Source of the DNA: a virus | Strand: one strand, 5' to 3' | IMG/VR virus record: IMGVR_UViG_3300043172_000590 | Coordinates: 1-64,000 of that record | Length of the DNA: 64,000 nucleotides | In this document: piece by piece, positions 1 through 62,632 of the stretch | Layout of the letters: each line of letters starts with the position of its first letter | Numbering within the stretch: position 1 is the first letter of the stretch | Notes under the pieces: generated by a model | Told to the model about the DNA's origin: nothing | What the model saw: the letters and a program-made list of their open reading frames with translations, nothing else | Database searches by the model: none | Made by a program: the position numbers and the translations under genes

Positions 1-304
1 TTTTATATATCTTTAATTTTTTCAAGGTTCTTATTATCCCCTTCTCATTTTTAATCATTTCTATAAACGCAAGAATGCTGTCGTTTATAAGCCCCTGCTC
101 TTTAAGTATATAATATATTCTTTCGTAATTTTCCTGCTGGGAGAAAATCATATCTATTCTTTTTTTACTCCATCCGCTTATTTCGGCCTGATCGTTATAT
201 GTATGTTGAAGGTCTGAGAGGTTTAAAAATCCATTAGTGTCTTGTCTTATTGTAGTCCCAAAAAGTTTCCTGTCTGTAGATGTCATTATTGCTTTTGTTT
301 TCAT
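1..304 (-). CDS. KilA-N-like DNA-binding protein (partial, runs off the window)
   Basis: Not in the ORF track. Hand translation from ATG 304 gives MKTKAIMTSTDRKLFGTTIRQDTNGFLNLSDLQ...ERIYYILKEQG, open to base 1. Resembles Bacteroidota phage KilA-N proteins. Confidence 0.6.
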   Translation of the reverse strand, partial: MKTKAIMTSTDRKLFGTTIRQDTNGFLNLSDLQHTYNDQAEISGWSKKRIDMIFSQQENYERIYYILKEQGLINDSILAFIEMIKNEKGIIRTLKKLKIYK

Positions 305-329
305 CTCTATAACATTTGATTTGTTTATG

Positions 330-337
330 CAAATATA
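330..337 (-). promoter_or_regulatory. Bacteroidota sigma70 -7 element (TATATTTG)
   Basis: Matches TAnnTTTG upstream of ATG 304. Palindrome ATTGGTAAACCAAT at 347-360 overlaps the -33 region. Confidence 0.6.
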
Positions 338-424
338 GAATAAAGGATTGGTAAACCAATAAATATTAATCAAAAACACACAGCCAAGTAACAAAATGTT
401 ACATAGTCTAGTTAGTAAAATACT

Positions 425-468
425 AAACAGCTACTCAGAGGGAATCGAACCCTCTGAGTAAACCGTTT
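425..468 (-). other. Hairpin with T-loop-like TTCGATT loop
   Basis: Perfect 11-bp stem 432-442/450-460, extended by G-U pairs on the minus strand. Confidence 0.6.
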
Positions 469-482
469 GGGAAGTTGATCTT

Positions 483-710
483 TTATTCACTTATAATTTC
501 ATCTACCCGATCATCCTCTGGCTCTTCCTTTTTTGCACTCACAAACCTATTGCATCCAAGCAATTCGCCACAATCACCATTAAACTCATCGTCATTATTT
601 GCTCTTATATCGCAATAAATCCAAGCAAATCCTTTTTTGCATTCTTCGCCTATACCTGTACAGTTAGCACAGCAATCTACATTTGTTTCAACTAAACTAA
701 ATTCTGCCAT
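483..710 (-). CDS. Hypothetical Cys-rich protein
   Basis: 75-aa ORF co-oriented with neighbours; several Cys. Confidence 0.5.
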   Translation of the reverse strand: MAEFSLVETNVDCCANCTGIGEECKKGFAWIYCDIRANNDDEFNGDCGELLGCNRFVSAKKEEPEDDRVDEIISE

Positions 711-745
711 AAAAATCAGCTTTTTAAATTATTTAAGTAAAAATT

Positions 746-1114
746 TTATCTCTTATATTCTAATTCTTCAAATCCGGACAATACATATTTGCAGAATAAA
801 ACTATAACAATGTGCTGAATACTACCTGAGAAAATTAAATACTCATTGAATCCCAAGAAGTAAATATGCATGAATATGGTTGCCCAAGTAGCGGTGCAGT
901 AGATGCAATATCCTAATGCATAGGCTATCTTTCCCTTGAATTTTCTCCACATTGAAGAGCCTGGGCGTCTGGATGACAAAACCCAAATGTTTAAAATATC
1001 ATACCAGAAATTGAAAATCATATTCCTTGGTTTAAGGCAATTCCTGAAAAATACTCCCAGAAAAGCTCCACCAATTCCGATTATCACAGATTCTAATAGT
1101 AAATACAAATTCAT
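746..1114 (-). CDS. Membrane protein with CxxC (DUF1360-like)
   Basis: Hydrophobic segments and GYCIYCTATW motif. Confidence 0.5.
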   Translation of the reverse strand: MNLYLLLESVIIGIGGAFLGVFFRNCLKPRNMIFNFWYDILNIWVLSSRRPGSSMWRKFKGKIAYALGYCIYCTATWATIFMHIYFLGFNEYLIFSGSIQHIVIVLFCKYVLSGFEELEYKR

Positions 1115-1461
1115 ATAAGCGATTTTCTTTTTCCAGTCGAAAATTTAATAAACTTGTGCGGCAGGTTAATAACCATGCCACCAATATTCAACCGGCCCTC
1201 AATCCTTTCTTCTCCATCCCGGATCTCAACGGTGGTTACCTGCAGTAGTTTGGCGCTCTTGATTTGATTCTTAAGGAACAGCGGCTCTATTTTATTGTTT
1301 CCGGTCCTGAACTTAAACCAAGCGTGTTCAAAGGTCAATGTGGAGCGTTCTGTTTTAGATAGGCACATTTTATGCTTATTGTCAATCCATTCGCCGTTTC
1401 CGACTACTTCCCGAAATCTAGCAGGAAATATTTTAATAACCCCTCCGAAAGTTTGTTCCAT
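1111..1461 (-). CDS. Hypothetical protein
   Basis: 116-aa ORF, ATGA overlap with the next gene. Confidence 0.6.
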   Translation of the reverse strand: MEQTFGGVIKIFPARFREVVGNGEWIDNKHKMCLSKTERSTLTFEHAWFKFRTGNNKIEPLFLKNQIKSAKLLQVTTVEIRDGEERIEGRLNIGGMVINLPHKFIKFSTGKRKSLI

Positions 1462-1479
1462 TTTATTAAATAAATTAGT

Positions 1480-1806
1480 TTACAATATTCTTATATCAGT
1501 AGGATAAATTTCAGCATCCCTAAACACTCTGTCTTCTATTTTGGTGATGTAATAATTGAGTACCCCTTCTATATAAATCTTGTCATGCCTGCGTAGTTTC
1601 GCCCCAACCCTTTTCGCCCTCAATCCCCGGACCATTACCCTATGGATGTCATCAACAATCTTCATTACGCCGGTTTCCTTATCCTCGGATGCTCTCTCTG
1701 TCCTGACATTTATCAATAAGAAATGCCTGTCTTGCCGGTTTATTATCTTAGGAGTCCCATATACCACCCCGACTATTATTACTTTTTGTGATGTTGATCT
1801 TGACAT
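1480..1806 (-). CDS. SSB-like OB-fold protein lacking an acidic tail
   Basis: KVIIVG...DIHRVMVRG..AKRV...LRRHDKIYIEGVL follows the SSB pattern. Confidence 0.65.
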   Translation of the reverse strand: MSRSTSQKVIIVGVVYGTPKIINRQDRHFLLINVRTERASEDKETGVMKIVDDIHRVMVRGLRAKRVGAKLRRHDKIYIEGVLNYYITKIEDRVFRDAEIYPTDIRIL

Positions 1807-1812
1807 ACTGAT

Positions 1813-2265
1813 TTATATTTCAACATTTTTAAGTTCAATTTCTCCATTAGTTATTTCTGCTAAGTCGTGGAGGGTTTTAATAGGAATCCATTCTTTAGTC
1901 TCGTTATCAAACAAAAATATTGCACCATCCTTTTCTGATTGCATCCAGTATCTTCCTATTCTCCATACATCACCTACCGGCTCCACAATAACATTTTCAA
2001 ATATTACTTTCTTTTCGGCCGTTTTCCATGACTCTAACCTTTTATAAAATGCCTCATCAGTCTCCGCAAATCCCTTATCATTAATTGGCTTTATTCTCTT
2101 ATTAAACACCATCTCTTCGGTTAATGGTTGTTTGATGAAATTAGTATATCCAACAACGGTATCGAAACACAGTGCTTTGAATTGCATCCTTTTTATGATT
2201 ATATTACGCTCAGGGATTAAGATTTCAATAAATTGACTCAGTGTATGTAGTTTATTTATTTTCAT
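1813..2265 (-). CDS. Hypothetical protein
   Basis: 150-aa ORF in a tightly packed operon. Confidence 0.7.
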   Translation of the reverse strand: MKINKLHTLSQFIEILIPERNIIIKRMQFKALCFDTVVGYTNFIKQPLTEEMVFNKRIKPINDKGFAETDEAFYKRLESWKTAEKKVIFENVIVEPVGDVWRIGRYWMQSEKDGAIFLFDNETKEWIPIKTLHDLAEITNGEIELKNVEI

Positions 2266-2267
2266 AG

Positions 2268-2477
2268 TTATTTAGCTTTTAAATGATCTACGATAAACTG
2301 CGCCTCTGGTAATTGTAGCTTGCCTCCATTTTCCATCACATCTTTCGTGTCCTCTTCCTCGTTAAGTCCTGCGACTTGTTTGACATAGGCTTTCTTTTCA
2401 TGCCCGTTGTCGGTCAAGACGATTCCGACGATTCCACTCATGGATGATATCCATATTGCCTGTACTTCCTTGCTCAT
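2268..2477 (-). CDS. Hypothetical protein
   Basis: 69-aa ORF, 2-nt spacing to the next gene. Confidence 0.6.
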   Translation of the reverse strand: MSKEVQAIWISSMSGIVGIVLTDNGHEKKAYVKQVAGLNEEEDTKDVMENGGKLQLPEAQFIVDHLKAK

Positions 2478-2520
2478 AATTTCTATTGTTTTACCTCTCC
2501 TTTAGAGGAAAGGGGTTTGA

Positions 2521-2835
2521 TTAATCATCACCTATTACATAAATAAGCAATCCGACAAATACAATAAATCCTATAATAAATCCACCTATTGCCGCATACT
2601 GGAAGTTGTATTCTAATTGCACGTCAAACCATTTACGTAATAATAGTCCTGTATAATATGAAACATTAGCAACTACTATTGTTATTGTCAGATAGGCGGC
2701 AACTTCAAGTATTAAATAGTACCATTTGCTATCAATAGGAAGTAATTTTTCAATTATTAATGGCAATAATGGGAGTGCCACTGTAGCTATGAATATCACG
2801 CCAATTATATATCCAAATTCTATTACCAATATCAT
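2521..2835 (-). CDS. Membrane protein (3 TM)
   Basis: Three hydrophobic stretches. Confidence 0.6.
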   Translation of the reverse strand: MILVIEFGYIIGVIFIATVALPLLPLIIEKLLPIDSKWYYLILEVAAYLTITIVVANVSYYTGLLLRKWFDVQLEYNFQYAAIGGFIIGFIVFVGLLIYVIGDD

Positions 2836-2864
2836 AACTATCTATTTTAATTCATTAATATTAA

Positions 2865-3290
2865 CTATTTACGATATCCATTCTTTTTTAACCAACTCCA
2901 AAACCCATCTCTCGTAGGCTCTTTTAACTTTATATAACATATCTTCTCCCGGGTTATTTTTGTTGTGAATGTTTCTTTTTCGGAAGAGTCAACATAAGTG
3001 ACTATATTAAGATGGGTGGTGGTCCCAGAATAATCCCAGAGTATTACATTTTCATATTCCTTATATTCACCACATTCAATCAAAACCCATGCCGTATCAA
3101 TAGGAATAAGCTTCAACTCCCCACTTGATGCATCAATATCATAGTGCACTATCCCGTGTTCAGTGATGGTGTCTGGCACTATTTCAGAACATTCATCATG
3201 AAAGGCATTCCATAGTTTTAAATATTCGCTATCCTGTGGAAAAACCTGGCTATATATAGCCATTGTGATAATCAATAATAATGTTTTCAT
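2865..3290 (-). CDS. Exported hypothetical protein
   Basis: Signal-peptide-like N-terminus MKTLLLIITMAIYSQVFPQ. Confidence 0.6.
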   Translation of the reverse strand: MKTLLLIITMAIYSQVFPQDSEYLKLWNAFHDECSEIVPDTITEHGIVHYDIDASSGELKLIPIDTAWVLIECGEYKEYENVILWDYSGTTTHLNIVTYVDSSEKETFTTKITREKICYIKLKEPTRDGFWSWLKKNGYRK

Positions 3291-3295
3291 AACTT

Positions 3296-4090
3296 CTATT
3301 TTAAAGTATTAATATTTATGATTGCTCCTTCTTTAAATGCTTTTTTTGCAAATTCCATATTCACGAGCCTATCATATACCTCGTCGGTTAATTTCCCTTT
3401 ATAACTGTTCGCAAGCTCAATAATATATTCCTTTTTAGCTTTAGCCCATGATAGATGTGCATCTATTTCCGATGAATAGAATCCGAGATTTATCCGGTTT
3501 CCATGTTTACCAATAAATGCCCTATATCTGCCATTTGAATATTCTCTAACTCCCATGAGCAATTTATTCTTTTTCGCATAATTAGAATGTACTGCTAGAT
3601 TTATTTTTCTTGGAACAAAACAACATCTGTCAAGGCGATACTCCCTATTCCCACTAATCAATATATCTTTATCAATTTCAAACCCTCTGATATAATTATC
3701 ATAAAACCACTTATTGAAATTAGTAAAACTATGCCATTCATCGCACACAAAACAATTTAAATACGTTGGTTTTCTTTTTTTATATTCAGTATTATATCCT
3801 CTCACAATCATTGCAGCCCAGACTTTATATGACAATTTAGTTAGGCTATCATTCTGTATGGATATGTTGCTTCCTATGTATCCAACACCGCAAACAGTTT
3901 TCTTTAGAAAATCAAGAACCTCCCCTTTTTTAATATTACCAAGCTGTGCTGTCACAATCGAACCGGTATTTACAAATTGGCATTCTATGCTTCTAGCGTG
4001 ATTATATTTAACAATAATTAAATCCCCGCAATTATTTGTACTAAACAATCTTCCTTCGTACTTTAATTTATTCTCTATTCTCTTACACAT
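3296..4090 (-). CDS. HNH homing endonuclease with C-terminal AP2 domain
   Basis: CDEWHSFTNF..W, IDKDIL..GN..Y....CCFVP..IN, then AP2-like GV.....RYRA.I......NLG.Y....DAH. Confidence 0.8.
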   Translation of the reverse strand: MCKRIENKLKYEGRLFSTNNCGDLIIVKYNHARSIECQFVNTGSIVTAQLGNIKKGEVLDFLKKTVCGVGYIGSNISIQNDSLTKLSYKVWAAMIVRGYNTEYKKRKPTYLNCFVCDEWHSFTNFNKWFYDNYIRGFEIDKDILISGNREYRLDRCCFVPRKINLAVHSNYAKKNKLLMGVREYSNGRYRAFIGKHGNRINLGFYSSEIDAHLSWAKAKKEYIIELANSYKGKLTDEVYDRLVNMEFAKKAFKEGAIININTLK

Positions 4091-4120
4091 GATAAATAGT
4101 TTTTATATACGTTATTAGAA

Positions 4121-4187
4121 GTATTGGGGCAGGAACGCATAACCTCATTGAACTAAGCCGCTAAACTTAGACTCCAATACAAATACA
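4121..4187 (-). promoter_or_regulatory. Promoter (TGTATTTG) followed by a structured 5' leader of the HNH-AP2 gene
   Basis: -7-like element 4180-4187; stem 4121-4129/4172-4180 with inner stem 4153-4157/4166-4170. Confidence 0.45.
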
Positions 4188-16553: not shown

Positions 16554-18344
16554 ATGAAAAGAGAATTGACAGAAGCAGCCAAGGCAGCCAAGGCAATAAG
16601 AACTGAGTTAAAAGAGGAATTTCCGGGAGTTAAATTCTCGGTTAAGTCGTCCAATTTTTCAATGGGAGACAGCGTCCACATATCCTATGTTGATGGACCG
16701 TTAACAAAAGATGTAGTAATCATCACAGGTAAGTATCAGCAGGGACATTTCGACGGAATGACAGATATGTATGAGTATTCCAACAGCAGAGACGACATAC
16801 CTCAAAGCAAATACGTACAAGTTGGTCGCACCATGTCAGCAGAGACGAGGGATGCGATATGGAAACATCTACAGGAGACGTTGACCGGATGCGAGGGCAA
16901 GGATATTGAGTCTCTTATTCCTGAATGGAACCAGTACGGATCACATTTAACCTACCGTGTATTTTCAGAGACTAACTACTATACTGAGCCTGAAAAGAAA
17001 GAGTTATCCGCATCTACCGTGGAAGGATTAGATTTTGAAATGGAAAAAACAGTGCACACTAAGAAGGGGCACGACGTCTGGGTAGCTAAATCATCTACCC
17101 GTGTCGGCAAAGATGAGTTCAGGGACTTGCTGGACTGCGCTAAGATGCTGGGAGGGTACTACTCTTCGTACAGTAGAGACGGAGCAGTGCCAGGTTTTCA
17201 GTTTAAATCAGATGAGGCATGCAGGGAGTTTGTAGCTAAATGTAGTAGCGAGACAAAAGAGCCGGTCGATAACACTATTGAGACATCAACAGTAACATCG
17301 AAGACGACAACAAAGAAGTCCGATGTAAAAAATGAGGTAATGGCTGCTAAGTGGCAGAAGCTTTCTGATTCATACAGAAACGAGAGCGACAAGCTGTATG
17401 ACAGGTTGAAGAATGCGCAGACCAATACACCTAAGCGGAACAGGGAATATAATTCCAAGAAAATTGATGCTGATATATTGAGTGATGTATCTATTCTTGC
17501 TCATGGTATTGCATTAGGATACGAGGATGGGACTTTAGCCGAAGAGTTAAAAGTATTGCAGCCAATTAAAAATAAAAGACAACTAATGATGTTTGTCCCG
17601 GGCCATGCTAATACCGGTGGATACTACGACGCCTTTAGAGACACCGTTCCGAATTACAAAAGGAATGGCAATATCACTGCTGGATTAAATGATGTGGGTA
17701 TTGAGACTGAGGCGCAAGCGGATAAGATACTGGAATTATTGAGCGCATTGGATAATACAAGCTCAGCGGAAAAAGAGAAGAGAAAAAACGAGGACAGGAT
17801 TAAGCAGTTGGAGGATAATTTTAAGTTTCAGAAAATCAAAGGATTCTTCCCTACCCCTCTCGATATGGGGCGTGAAATGCTGAGCAGATTGGGAATAACA
17901 AACGGGCAAACTATATCTGATCCATCTGCAGGGCTTGGGCATTTAGCTGCGATTGTCAAGGAAGAATATCCAGACAACACACTGAAAACATTTGAGATAA
18001 GACCCGCTCTCTCGGAAATCCTAACACTCAAAGGATTCGATAATACGTGCGCCGACTTTCTTGAGTGCGATGAGAAATTTGATAGGTTTATTATGAACCC
18101 CCCATTTGAAAACTCACAGGATATTGACCACGTTCGTCATGCGTACTCGTTATTAAACGATGGCGGCAGGATTGTATCTATCATGGGGTCTGGCACATTT
18201 CACAACTCTTCCAAAAAACATAAGGAGTTTCAAGCGTGGATTGACGAGATTGGCGCCGAGTATGAAACAAATCCCGAGGGCTCATTCAAGGGAGCATTTA
18301 AAAGTACAATGGTTGGCTCCTGTATAGTTGTAATTGATAAATAA
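16554..18344 (+). CDS. LPD29 domain + N6-adenine methyltransferase fusion
   Basis: N-terminal AKAIRTELKEEFPGVKFSVKS..FSMGDSV.I.Y.DGP (LPD29); C-terminal FFPTP, DPSAGLG, MNPPF. Confidence 0.82.
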   Translation: MKRELTEAAKAAKAIRTELKEEFPGVKFSVKSSNFSMGDSVHISYVDGPLTKDVVIITGKYQQGHFDGMTDMYEYSNSRDDIPQSKYVQVGRTMSAETRDAIWKHLQETLTGCEGKDIESLIPEWNQYGSHLTYRVFSETNYYTEPEKKELSASTVEGLDFEMEKTVHTKKGHDVWVAKSSTRVGKDEFRDLLDCAKMLGGYYSSYSRDGAVPGFQFKSDEACREFVAKCSSETKEPVDNTIETSTVTSKTTTKKSDVKNEVMAAKWQKLSDSYRNESDKLYDRLKNAQTNTPKRNREYNSKKIDADILSDVSILAHGIALGYEDGTLAEELKVLQPIKNKRQLMMFVPGHANTGGYYDAFRDTVPNYKRNGNITAGLNDVGIETEAQADKILELLSALDNTSSAEKEKRKNEDRIKQLEDNFKFQKIKGFFPTPLDMGREMLSRLGITNGQTISDPSAGLGHLAAIVKEEYPDNTLKTFEIRPALSEILTLKGFDNTCADFLECDEKFDRFIMNPPFENSQDIDHVRHAYSLLNDGGRIVSIMGSGTFHNSSKKHKEFQAWIDEIGAEYETNPEGSFKGAFKSTMVGSCIVVIDK

Positions 18345-18938: not shown

Positions 18939-19343
18939 TTGATAGTGAACAAGGAGGAACATATGAAAGCAATTGATAAAATGACAGACCATGAAGTCTG
19001 GTTGGATTGGGTCAATAATTTTGTGACAGTAGAGGCCATGGCGGAATATTACTCCGTAGGTGCCATAGAGATACACAACAAGCTAACCTTAGGGCGTAAT
19101 GAGCACGATAGGTTAGCGAAAATAGAGAAAGCAAAGAAAACCCTCTCAGATGTCGGTTTCCATACCGATAACCTCTGGCATATTGATGATGTCAAGTCAA
19201 AGTTTAAATGCACAGGCAAACAGGCCATGAGTATTCTCAGCGAGGCATTGGCTAATGATGCGACCATGCAGCAGATATGGTACGCTATTGGGTTTCATGC
19301 GGAAGAGGAGGGGCTGTGTGAGGTGGAAGAGGAGCCAGTTTGA
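18939..19343 (+). CDS. Hypothetical protein
   Basis: WLDWVNNFVTVE.MAEYY and NLWHIDDV segments typical of phage early proteins. Confidence 0.65.
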   Translation: MIVNKEEHMKAIDKMTDHEVWLDWVNNFVTVEAMAEYYSVGAIEIHNKLTLGRNEHDRLAKIEKAKKTLSDVGFHTDNLWHIDDVKSKFKCTGKQAMSILSEALANDATMQQIWYAIGFHAEEEGLCEVEEEPV

Positions 19344-19384
19344 AAATTATATATCTTAACATTTTTACATAAAATTGATTTAAA

Positions 19385-19624
19385 ATGAAAACATTAAAAT
19401 TATTACAACGCAATTTACTATGCATATTGCTATGCGTTATCCTGTGTGCCGGATGCAAGACCGAAGAAACTAAACCAAAACCGTTTGAATTACCACGTAA
19501 TGATATTATGGTTATTTTTGAAAACGGGTACAAAAAAGGTGCACTACATGTGCTAGAAGAGGGTTGCTACAAGCCTGAAAGATGGGAAAAAGATTCTGTT
19601 TCAGTGGTTGTGTTTTGGCAATAA
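19385..19624 (+). CDS. Putative lipoprotein
   Basis: Hydrophobic N-terminus ending LCAG-C (lipobox). Confidence 0.6.
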   Translation: MKTLKLLQRNLLCILLCVILCAGCKTEETKPKPFELPRNDIMVIFENGYKKGALHVLEEGCYKPERWEKDSVSVVVFWQ

Positions 19625-19625
19625 T

Positions 19626-19852
19626 ACATAACGTAATTAATAAACGCAGTTTTATGAAGAATTTAATAGAAGAAATACAGTACCAATTTGAAATGCTAAA
19701 ACGATGGATGCGAGAACAAAAATTGCGTTTATTTGGTGTTAGCAGGTCGTTTTATTGCCAATCAGATATTGAAGGCAATAGAAAATGTAAAAACCAATGC
19801 GACCACTGCAAAGAATATTACAAACCATTAGAGCAATAATATGACTGCTAAC
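19626..19852 (+). mobile_element. attC-like interlocking inverted repeats (cassette remnant)
   Basis: ACATAAC(19626)...aataaacgcagtttt / aaaattgcgtttatt...GTTAGCA(19738); second IR 19738-19758/19833-19852. Confidence 0.5.
19654..19839 (+). CDS. Small Cys-rich protein spanning the attC-like junction
   Basis: MKNLIEE...LFGVSRSFYC...CKNQCDHC. Confidence 0.6.
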   Translation: MKNLIEEIQYQFEMLKRWMREQKLRLFGVSRSFYCQSDIEGNRKCKNQCDHCKEYYKPLEQ

Positions 19853-19870
19853 TAGCAAATAGACACACCC

Positions 19871-19975
19871 ATGAAATTAGACAAAGATAAAGTAGAGATA
19901 ATACTCGGTTCTGTAGTATTGGCAATAGGATTGTTTTTAGTTGGCATATTACTGAACCTATTTGGAGGAAATTAA
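19871..19975 (+). CDS. Small membrane protein (34 aa)
   Basis: Not in the track; single hydrophobic helix. Confidence 0.45.
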   Translation: MKLDKDKVEIILGSVVLAIGLFLVGILLNLFGGN

Positions 19976-19979
19976 AATT

Positions 19980-20516
19980 ATGGAATTACTGCCAGGAATA
20001 ACATTCACAGGAAAACACTTCACCGGAAGAGTGGAGGTGCTTGCAATTAATGAAGAGCATAACGTATTGTGGGTTAGGTGTACTAGCCGAATCAATGGCC
20101 ATTGCTCTCAATTTACAGAGCATTGGGATCTGCAGCATGTAAGATGGGGTATTGAACAGGGAGAATATACCTACGCTCAATTCCCAAATTATCCGTCAGC
20201 CCATTTTTCTGGATTTACTGAGAAGGAGAAATTTATAGATGAGTGTGAAAAACTTGACAATCAATTGTATCATAAGCTCAGAGAGGCAGGGATTGAAAAG
20301 GCGAAAACTCCCGACCACGATAATGTTCCAGATGCTTCTGGCAATCCTATATTTATCCGTCCCACAATGGATGATTTTAAGGATATGTATGGCAGGTCGA
20401 AGCAACTAACCCACGGACACTACGATACTATAAGGACGAGCGTAAAGATAGAGCGGAACAAGCCGTGTCCTTGTGGCTCTAAGAAGAAATATAAAAAGTG
20501 TTGTTTAAATAAATAA
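19980..20516 (+). CDS. SEC-C motif protein
   Basis: C-terminal RNKPCPCGSKKKYKKCC. Confidence 0.8.
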   Translation: MELLPGITFTGKHFTGRVEVLAINEEHNVLWVRCTSRINGHCSQFTEHWDLQHVRWGIEQGEYTYAQFPNYPSAHFSGFTEKEKFIDECEKLDNQLYHKLREAGIEKAKTPDHDNVPDASGNPIFIRPTMDDFKDMYGRSKQLTHGHYDTIRTSVKIERNKPCPCGSKKKYKKCCLNK

Positions 20517-62367: not shown

Positions 62368-62575
62368 AAACCCTTGCGACGGGAAAGATGTGTCGTGGAT
62401 TGCTCTTGATGAAATCGCGATGGGATTTCGGAGGACAAAGGCAAGGTGGATGATTGAAAACGAAACAAGACTTGATGGTGCTGCGGTAATGGAGGGTTTA
62501 AGTATTTCTTCCGAGGACATTGAGGCACTCGAGAATATCTAGCCTATCGTGCCACACGTAGGACGGAAAGGTTTC

Positions 62576-62609
62576 AAAGCCCGATAAGACATGATTCTTA
62601 CCGGGCTTT
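62576..62609. terminator. Terminator between convergent genes
   Basis: aaagcccg..taaga / tctta..cgggcttt stem. Confidence 0.6.
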
Positions 62610-62632
62610 GCGTTTTTAGTGATACTAATACG

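Follow-up and report, generated by a model that had tools for sequence, protein, structure and literature searches.

The integron is the classic means by which bacteria capture genes and reshuffle them. Small gene modules between inverted recombination sites are also known from the Xer-dependent pdif modules of Acinetobacter plasmids and from the Rci shufflons, which exchange C-terminal gene segments, and the sites of these systems are constant double-stranded sequences of 28 bp or 19 bp. Here we compare such systems with a locus in a viral DNA stretch of 64,000 nucleotides (nt), positions 1 to 64,000 of IMG/VR record IMGVR_UViG_3300043172_000590 (the whole of which we call the window), where two interlocking inverted repeats, IR1 and IR2, are built into a gene for a 61-amino-acid (aa) protein. 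Reports from phages have so far been limited to pieces of bacterial integrons and a small number of isolated attC clusters, with 17 integrase-less clusters described by Qi et al. 2023, among them one in Polaribacter phage P12002L (PMC9892861). The closest concept without an integron is that of the promoter(early) stem-loop elements (PeSL) of T4-type phages, short stem-loop motifs beside small non-essential genes in plastic regions, which act as exchange points of unrelated genes and give rise to mini-circles (Arbiol 2010, PMC2839356; Comeau 2014, PMC4122927). In the literature we found no description of cassette arrays joined to a Xer-like recombinase in phages.

Our comparative analysis leads us to regard positions 19628-19852 of the window as one complete, horizontally acquired cassette of an integron-like system of marine Flavobacteriia-type phages, a reading to which we give a probability of roughly 0.6. 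This segment has the gene of a lipoprotein on one side and that of a small membrane protein on the other and shares 82-93% identity with segments in more than 15 otherwise unrelated aquatic phage contigs, which have nothing else in common with the window within 2.3 kb and carry different neighbours on both sides. The DNA homology has its left edge at 19627-19631 and its right edge at 19852 in nearly all contigs, that is, it halts at an xTAAC box on either side of a 225-base unit, and the ends of homology between contigs generally cluster at AAC boxes. Since the homology runs from AAC box to AAC box, the mobile unit appears to consist of the element, the whole gene and a closing box. The sequence-only reading of the locus had staked itself beforehand on homologous genes showing breakpoints and on the repeats being conserved, and both were found.

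The features of the unit and its surroundings are listed in Table 1. The arms of IR1, 15 nt each and 65 nt apart, form 14 Watson-Crick pairs and one G.T pair and are flanked by the boxes ACATAAC and GTTAGCA (19738-19744), so that the window copy spans 19626-19744 in an attC-like layout. In IR2, positions 19738-19758 pair with 19833-19852 with one extra base (G19746), one G.T and one T.T, and the repeat surrounds codons 29-61 and the stop codon of the open reading frame (ORF). Both repeats are present as the sequence-only reading had described them. The 64 kb contain 2 inverted repeats whose arms reach 14 nt or more with no more than one mismatch within 120 nt, for a chance estimate of ~2; GTT…AAC pairs of 8-mers number 9, compared with ~15 in shuffles; and an RNA fold of 280 nt has z=-3.2. 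With its statistics at chance level, the window by itself proves nothing on IR1 or IR2, and it is the comparison with the sequences of other phages that establishes both as real.

Table 1. Features of the cassette and of its surroundings in the window
Feature	Positions	Strand	Remarks
attC-like element, match to covariance model R1	19628-19742	+	29.2 bits, E=0.0048, model positions 1-91; only match in 64 kb
R''-like box ACATAAC	19626-19632	+	left edge of the unit common to other phages; family consensus xTAAC, invariant in alignment
5' spacer G-TAATT	19633-19638	+	first G is the conserved G.U partner of the T before GTT; rest unpaired
L''-like 5' arm of IR1	19639-19653	+	sole non-Watson-Crick position is the family's conserved G.U
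Loop of attC-like element	19654-19718	+	contains ATG and codons 1-22 of the 61-aa ORF
L'-like 3' arm of IR1	19719-19733	+	codons 22-27
R'-like box and 5' arm of IR2	19738-19754	+	GTTAGCAG, bulged G, TC, then CGTTTTA (5' half of loop motif)
Payload, 86 nt	19755-19840	+	four-cysteine module (Cys35 to Gln61) and stop codon
ATG (3' half of loop motif) and 3' arm ACTGCTAAC	19841-19852	+	right edge of shared unit
61-aa ORF	19654-19839	+	N-terminal helix residues 2-26 and C-terminal C-x9-C-x3-C-x2-C mini-domain
4-codon ORF	starts at ATG 19841	+	
'Weaker copy' of the sequence-only reading	19354-19442	+	TCTTAAC (19354-19360) and GTTATCC (19436-19442) present; upstream of and inside lipoprotein gene
Lipoprotein ORF, 79 aa	19385-19624	+	
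Membrane-protein ORF, 34 aa	19871-19975		
177-aa protein	19983-20516		ends in SEC-C zinc-binding motif (PF02810, 6.5e-8); directly 3' of 61-aa gene
64-kb window	1-64,000		lies in a phage genome of 77,826 bp that is complete and has direct terminal repeats

Evidence for IR2 comes from 27 genes that share the same 27-codon tail, about 20 of which keep the repeat. In this set 81% of the IR2 cells hold standard pairs, as against 30-60% after sliding the partner, and the 17 cells with a double change were equalled in one of 500 shuffles. Around the same payload we found seven different complementary stems, GTTAGCAG, GTTGGCAG, GTTAACAG, GTTAGCAAA, GTTGTAAAG, GTTAGCGA and GTTAGCAAT, each with its own matching partner ending in AAC; in the window, GTTAGCAG pairs with CTGCTAAC, which is the cassette-specific complement of the GTTA box (8-10 nt, ending in TAAC). 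RNAalifold run on the 27 genes did not recover IR2, because seven of the sequences lack it. For IR1, no covariation was seen among the homologues of the 61-aa gene alone, where single-sided changes break pairs, and support for this repeat is therefore found only at the level of the wider element family.

In this family the inner part of arm 1 of IR2, CGTTTTAWTG, recurs in relatives, always on the coding strand, as the loop of non-coding hairpins between genes. The hairpins take two forms, GTT-stem-loop-stem-AAC and, in attC-like order, AAC-G-spacer-stem-loop-stem-T-GTT. The module gene corresponds to the first form with an insert, of 86 nt in most copies, between CGTTTTA and ATG, and the flanks of the short hairpin and of the module-bearing form are homologous over more than 30 nt on each side. 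In the relatives, small ORFs or their 3' parts each lie within their own perfect repeat of 9-10 nt, GTT[AG]xxxxxx…xxxxxx[TC]AAC; perfect nine-mer frames number 119 (33 in shuffles) and perfect 10-nt pairs 39 (4.7 in shuffles). In 114 cassettes of recombinase-linked arrays, the stop codon stands at fixed offsets of 1, 11 or 13 nt from AAC. Where an ORF ends at the 3' box, it starts inside the frame in 59 of 103 cassettes and in the element upstream of GTT in 42; in most of the latter the distance to GTT is 42-78 nt, and the window gene follows this pattern. A gene start within a hairpin loop, which the sequence-only reading had pointed out for the 61-aa gene, is thus shared by about 40% of the cassette ORFs.

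Between the frames we collected 81 distinct elements, which are either 75-85 or 105-125 nt long. The short class yields a consensus hairpin of 23 pairs, 16 of them with compensatory changes, and conserved G.U pairs; a 4-nt 5' bulge and conserved G.T wobbles also belong to the family, and the G.U between the G after AAC and the T before GTT is present in 26 of 27 aligned members. The architecture conforms to the attC layout, with an R'' box ending in AAC, L'', loop, L', an R' box starting with GTT and an unpaired spacer, and the lengths fall within the attC range of 57-141 bp; the strict consensus RYYYAAC/GTTRRRY is not matched. The R''-L''…L'-R' arrangement discerned in the single sequence has accordingly turned out to be that of a conserved, covarying family. 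A covariance model, R1, was built from 27 short-class elements of recombinase-linked arrays and included no homologue of the 61-aa gene. Its alignment in the window nevertheless takes in the AUAACG box, both arms of IR1 and the UGUUAG box, and it also matches the homologous positions in four related contigs (L019, L035, L037 and L043). The family even includes a site already in the literature: the published P12002L_attC1 primer is a family element at NC_028924 30007-30057, with an CGTTTTAATG loop, which had been predicted as attC by HattCI only (PMC9892861). P12002L has at least four R1 matches, all on the strand of the genes.

Furthermore, the elements are strand-biased. The coding strand is the more stable one in 80 of the 81 elements with DNA parameters and in 70 with RNA parameters, and it folds better in 23 of the 27 short hairpins. 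Among frame pairs with one mismatch, G.T occurs 29 times with 10 expected, and A.C 11 times with 8 expected. Taken together, the fold bias and the G.T excess indicate that pairing is selected on the coding strand, either as RNA or as single-stranded DNA.

In two of the relatives (L019 and L038), a tyrosine recombinase of 265-267 aa (PF00589, 1e-35) is encoded inside the cassette arrays. Its best matches are the archaeal XerA, XerD, XerC and IntI models, and residues 19-181 and 210-263 align to IntI4 while IntI4 residues 183-260 are skipped, which means that the array-linked enzyme has no IntI insertion. A search for homologues gave 59 viral loci, of which 42 (L115-L156, some only partial matches) were examined for frames. 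From one to nine perfect ten-mer frames, arranged as consecutive arrays, were present in 34 of the 42, with 0-0.8 expected per locus; 14 full-length recombinases of only 21-29% identity had no perfect frames. R1 gave 84 coding-strand matches in 17 loci, all upstream of the recombinase gene, and none downstream, with 6 kb searched on each side. The arrays comprise up to nine head-to-tail cassettes and end at the recombinase gene, the last AAC lying ~52 nt before its start codon in about ten contigs. Their neighbours are phage-typical genes such as those for thymidylate synthase, methyltransferases and a virion protein. The cassette arrangement suspected from the window alone finds support in other phages, where small-gene cassettes are set apart by the elements and the arrays stop at a tyrosine recombinase gene. 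No tyrosine recombinase (PF00589) was found in the complete 77.8-kb phage genome, in keeping with the earlier remark that the window holds no integrase. The window genome has one cassette and, unlike the relatives, no array next to a recombinase gene, and a decayed array was looked for in the early region of the window and not found. Because the complete genome has no tyrosine recombinase, we see the window copy as a stranded single cassette.

The cassette has two parts, an attC-like site (xTAAC box, short spacer, long L-type stem with G.T wobbles, variable loop and T-GTTA box) and a payload ending in an 8-10-nt complement of the GTTA box. Were the cassette excised in circular form, its two boxes would pair at the foot of a single long hairpin, so that the complementarity of the cassette ends is what a circular intermediate would need. 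In the donor phages, we infer, the AAC box of the folded coding strand is where the recombinase breaks and reseals the DNA, and the enzyme would thereby excise, insert and reshuffle cassettes, one of which would have reached the window phage horizontally. The 61-aa protein, a helix followed by a four-cysteine knuckle, would be expressed from the cassette, and the hairpins probably fold in the mRNA too. It is the linkage of arrays to the recombinase, together with the complementary cassette ends, that makes us favour a site-specific integron-like system.

Several features are shared with integrons. The folded sites run from AAC to GTT, with R-type and L-type stems, an unpaired spacer and a variable loop, here within 75-125 nt; each cassette carries one small gene in a single orientation and has complementary ends; and the array adjoins a tyrosine recombinase of the Xer/IntI group, and recombinase-less arrays exist as well, like the clusters of attC sites lacking integron-integrases (CALINs) reported in virulent phages (PMC9892861). 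However, the phage enzyme has 265 aa and is without the IntI-specific insertion, and its gene lies downstream of the array and in the same direction, whereas that of the integron diverges from the attI site. Moreover, the recombinogenic folded strand of integrons is the bottom strand, marked by extrahelical bases, whereas here the coding strand folds better. As judged from the AAC-to-AAC homology units, the site precedes the ORF within the phage cassette, about 40% of the cassette ORFs start in the loop of the site, and the R-box complementarity extends over 9-10 nt. Finally, the homology boundaries are at the AAC box, in contrast to recombination by IntI at G/TT. With regard to the pdif modules and shufflons, the phage elements differ in being folded hairpins with variable stems, we saw no inverted copies of payloads, and the antisense frame carries no sign of selection. 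An invertible, dual-coding segment of the shufflon type was ruled out for the payload: its antisense frame is open only through conservation of the sense frame, and substitutions in that frame are not conservative.

Several observations weigh against a site-specific system. The recombinase stays below the curated cut-offs of the XerA, XerC, XerD and IntI models (for the integron-integrase model TIGR02249, 145 bits with a cut-off of 265, which places it outside the IntI type), and it could be an ordinary integrase whose gene just happens to close an early operon. Elements are present without a recombinase in several long contigs and in P12002L, where no homologue of the enzyme was found, and P12002L_attC1, the only family member tried at the bench, was the single site out of six to yield no verified IntI1 recombinants (PMC9892861). 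The window genome shows no excess of GTT…AAC frames, a search for an empty insertion site was negative, and no recombination product or circle was seen. Finally, the positions of stops and starts, the co-orientation with genes and the better fold of the coding strand fit a role in mRNA equally well. The sequence-only reading had proposed a search for an IntI-like recombinase in phage or host; the enzyme found at the arrays of relatives is Xer-like and not an IntI, and the window genome encodes no tyrosine recombinase.

In cultured relatives of the recombinase (33-38% identity) from Polaribacter phage Freya and Cellulophaga phage Ingeline, no arrays were found. Among the ten near-identical Freya isolates (Freya_1 to Freya_10, MT732463-MT732472), the start of the integrase gene ranges from 50 to 4147 and the genome length from 43,978 to 48,920 bp, which suggests that small genes have been gained and lost immediately upstream of the integrase. 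A frame of 8 nt, GTTAGCAA/TTGCTAAC (L174:3976-4100), ends 47 nt before the Freya integrase gene. In another contig (L134:6827-8074), a second, larger integrase of 415 aa, matching PHROG integrase families, directly follows the small Xer-like recombinase, and the small enzyme need therefore not be the lysogeny integrase.

The most serious rival, which we consider possible though clearly less probable, is that the elements act only in RNA, as conserved stems of an early polycistronic mRNA that serve processing, stability or translation control. Local hairpins would then lie between cistrons and long-range stems would close them, the recombinase would be a bystander, and cassettes would be traded by ordinary homologous recombination at short junction motifs, as with PeSL. 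Every element is co-oriented with the genes, the sense strand folds better and conserves G.U pairs, stops stand at fixed offsets and are often the TAA of TAAC, starts lie in loops, and phages without a recombinase also have the elements, all as this explanation expects; the PeSLs, moreover, demonstrate that regulatory motifs can mediate modular shuffling and even mini-circles (PMC2839356, PMC4122927). Left unexplained are the 84 upstream as against zero downstream matches, although the downstream genes are mostly co-oriented, and the constant distance of 52 nt that separates the arrays from the start codon of the recombinase. Furthermore, no known role requires a separate 10-bp stem for each cistron, and 40% of the stems begin inside the ORF. 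A PeSL consists of a sigma-70 promoter and a terminator and relies on homologous recombination, whereas a sigma-70-type scan of 19250-20050, which did not cover promoters of the Bacteroidota type, gave promoter-like sites at the shuffle level and no terminator-like ones in the window copy; the stems described here are also cassette-specific, unlike those of PeSL, and a recombinase is linked to the arrays. Rfam searches matched no family in the window region or in five element-rich loci of relatives. A function in mRNA may coexist with recombination or may be the sole function.

The other explanations fare less well. Selfish palindromic repeats of phage early regions, resembling miniature inverted-repeat transposable elements (MITE), repetitive extragenic palindromes (REP) or Rickettsia palindromic elements (RPE) and holding coding DNA in their loops by accident, would account for the short 'empty' hairpins (GTT-stem, CGTTTTAATG loop, stem-AAC) that are homologous in their flanks to the module-bearing form. 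In-frame translation of repeats of this sort is known from the Rickettsia elements. We nevertheless think this improbable, for the stems vary between copies and covary, whereas MITEs have constant terminal repeats, spacing and orientation are strictly regular and tied to the ORF ends, and no transposase is associated. That these are classical attC sites served by a bacterial IntI of the host seems very unlikely, even though the AAC/GTT boxes, the two-stem layout and the length of 75-125 nt agree with it, one member was called by HattCI, and other phage attC sites work with IntI1 (PMC9892861). The member that was tried, P12002L_attC1, gave no verified recombinants with that enzyme (PMC9892861), the window boxes ACATAAC and GTTAGCA misfit RYYYAAC/GTTRRRY, the shortest elements share a conserved terminal loop motif, and neither the better fold of the coding strand nor a linked recombinase without the IntI insertion is expected of such sites. 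Chance matches in AT-rich DNA, compatible with the window-only statistics, rank lowest of all and are already refuted for IR1 and IR2 by the compensatory conservation, the R1 match and the sharp homology boundaries.

Chance still stands for the 'weaker copy' that the sequence-only reading had placed on the lipoprotein gene, and this part of the proposal has to be given up: its R-box matches at 6/10, the mode of the null distribution, and R1 does not match it even at E<=10. The leader of the same gene and its first ~16 codons, which encode the signal peptide, are nearly 90% identical in DNA to a second contig (19343-19432 with L177:2446-2550), the mature part of the protein differs, and the break falls immediately ahead of the GTT at 19436; neither AAC nor GTT boxes are present in L177.

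Homologues of the 61-aa protein occur in 8 viral contigs and in 80 metagenome contigs, which come from lakes, seas and saline waters. The last 27-33 residues of the protein are a mini-domain in which four cysteines, spaced C-x9-C-x3-C-x2-C, are invariant, and a profile of this module retrieved 321 clusters at 50% identity. The module is found C-terminally after more than 20 unrelated N-terminal parts, including deoxycytidine monophosphate (dCMP) deaminase, and elsewhere it is N-terminal, internal, duplicated or alone as a protein of 37-38 aa. As the nucleotide differences are mostly synonymous, the four-cysteine module is a real protein module. AlphaFold predicts a confident helix for residues 2-26 of the 61-aa protein and models the cysteine part with low confidence. 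In its attachment to many unrelated proteins, the module resembles another cysteine-rich tail, the SEC-C motif (PF02810), from which it differs in its cysteine spacing and in having no Pfam or PHROG match, and its metal binding is putative. Since a gene for a SEC-C protein adjoins the 61-aa gene, two different promiscuous cysteine-rich C-terminal tails are neighbours in this genome.

According to the sequence-only reading, recombination at G/TT swaps N- and C-terminal gene halves. The many N-terminal partners of the module agree with this, and in several lineages homology does begin at the core: two contigs (L037 and L052) have a common N-terminal half up to the arm-1 codons followed by different cysteine-rich payloads, and in L022, L024, L052 and L060 the stretch homologous to the window begins at GTT. 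It begins 10-16 nt before GTT in L044, L057, L066 and L074, and in many other contigs only at the Phe-Tyr-Cys codons, where other fusions break. The main unit, moreover, runs from AAC to AAC and includes the whole 61-aa gene. The proposal is thus partly right, in that some exchange also occurs inside the unit, and swapping of gene halves is not the main mode. In two contigs (L045:2975-3102 and L046), the module has an intact frame and both arms of IR2 and is without start codon or N-terminal half, that is, it is a cassette payload lacking a translation start. Translational coupling, in which IR2 would hide a downstream start at TAA-N-ATG, was ruled out: the ORF from the second ATG lacks conservation and mostly has 4-9 codons (4 in the window; two loci have 24 and 31), and this ATG makes up the 3' half of the loop motif of the family.

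Whether marine Flavobacteriia-type phages own a previously undescribed integron-like platform, in which entire small genes are shuffled, as are halves of proteins at the second box, and from which the window cassette escaped to an enzyme-less phage, is in our judgement evenly balanced. The same even odds apply to the details of such a platform, in which arrays of nine or more mini-cassettes would be followed at their 3' end by a compact Xer-like recombinase of 265 aa without the IntI insertion, and attC-like sites folded on the coding strand would often hold the start codon of the gene and its first ~20 codons. If true, it would provide a new, testable mechanism behind the mosaic 'ORFan' regions of phage genomes and a route for small accessory genes between unrelated phages, with protein domains shuffled at the DNA level by a phage-borne platform that has its own compact recombinase and dozens of cassettes. 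The cassette genes include methyltransferases, and most others are without known function. The 225-bp unit, the covariance model and the candidate enzyme are concrete products of the analysis.

Two contigs with related cassettes carry further genes of note. An RtcB RNA ligase (PF01139, 4e-39) directly follows a four-cysteine-module cassette in L057:2944-4296 and could bear on an RNA-level role. In L043:799-2097, a phage contig, a complete acyl-CoA dehydrogenase with three Pfam domains lies upstream of the cassette array and may be an auxiliary metabolic gene.

The window has a G+C content of 39%, and no tRNA genes were found in it. Small rightward genes occupy ~13-27 kb, and the remainder consists of large leftward genes including terminase and portal. 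A DNA search of the region against cultured phages gave no match, and Pfam and PHROGs contained no family for the 61-aa protein, the lipoprotein or the 34-aa ORF. A protein of 596 aa is encoded at 16554-18344 of the window; it combines an LPD29 'large polyvalent protein' domain at the N terminus with a DNA methyltransferase domain at the C terminus, and its PHROG matches are giant polyvalent proteins. The sole other strong short-range inverted repeat in the window, at 62575-62610, has 14-nt G+C-rich arms separated by 8 nt and is terminator-like; it lies just upstream of the start of a leftward gene (62158-61562) and downstream of a leftward RyR-fusion gene.

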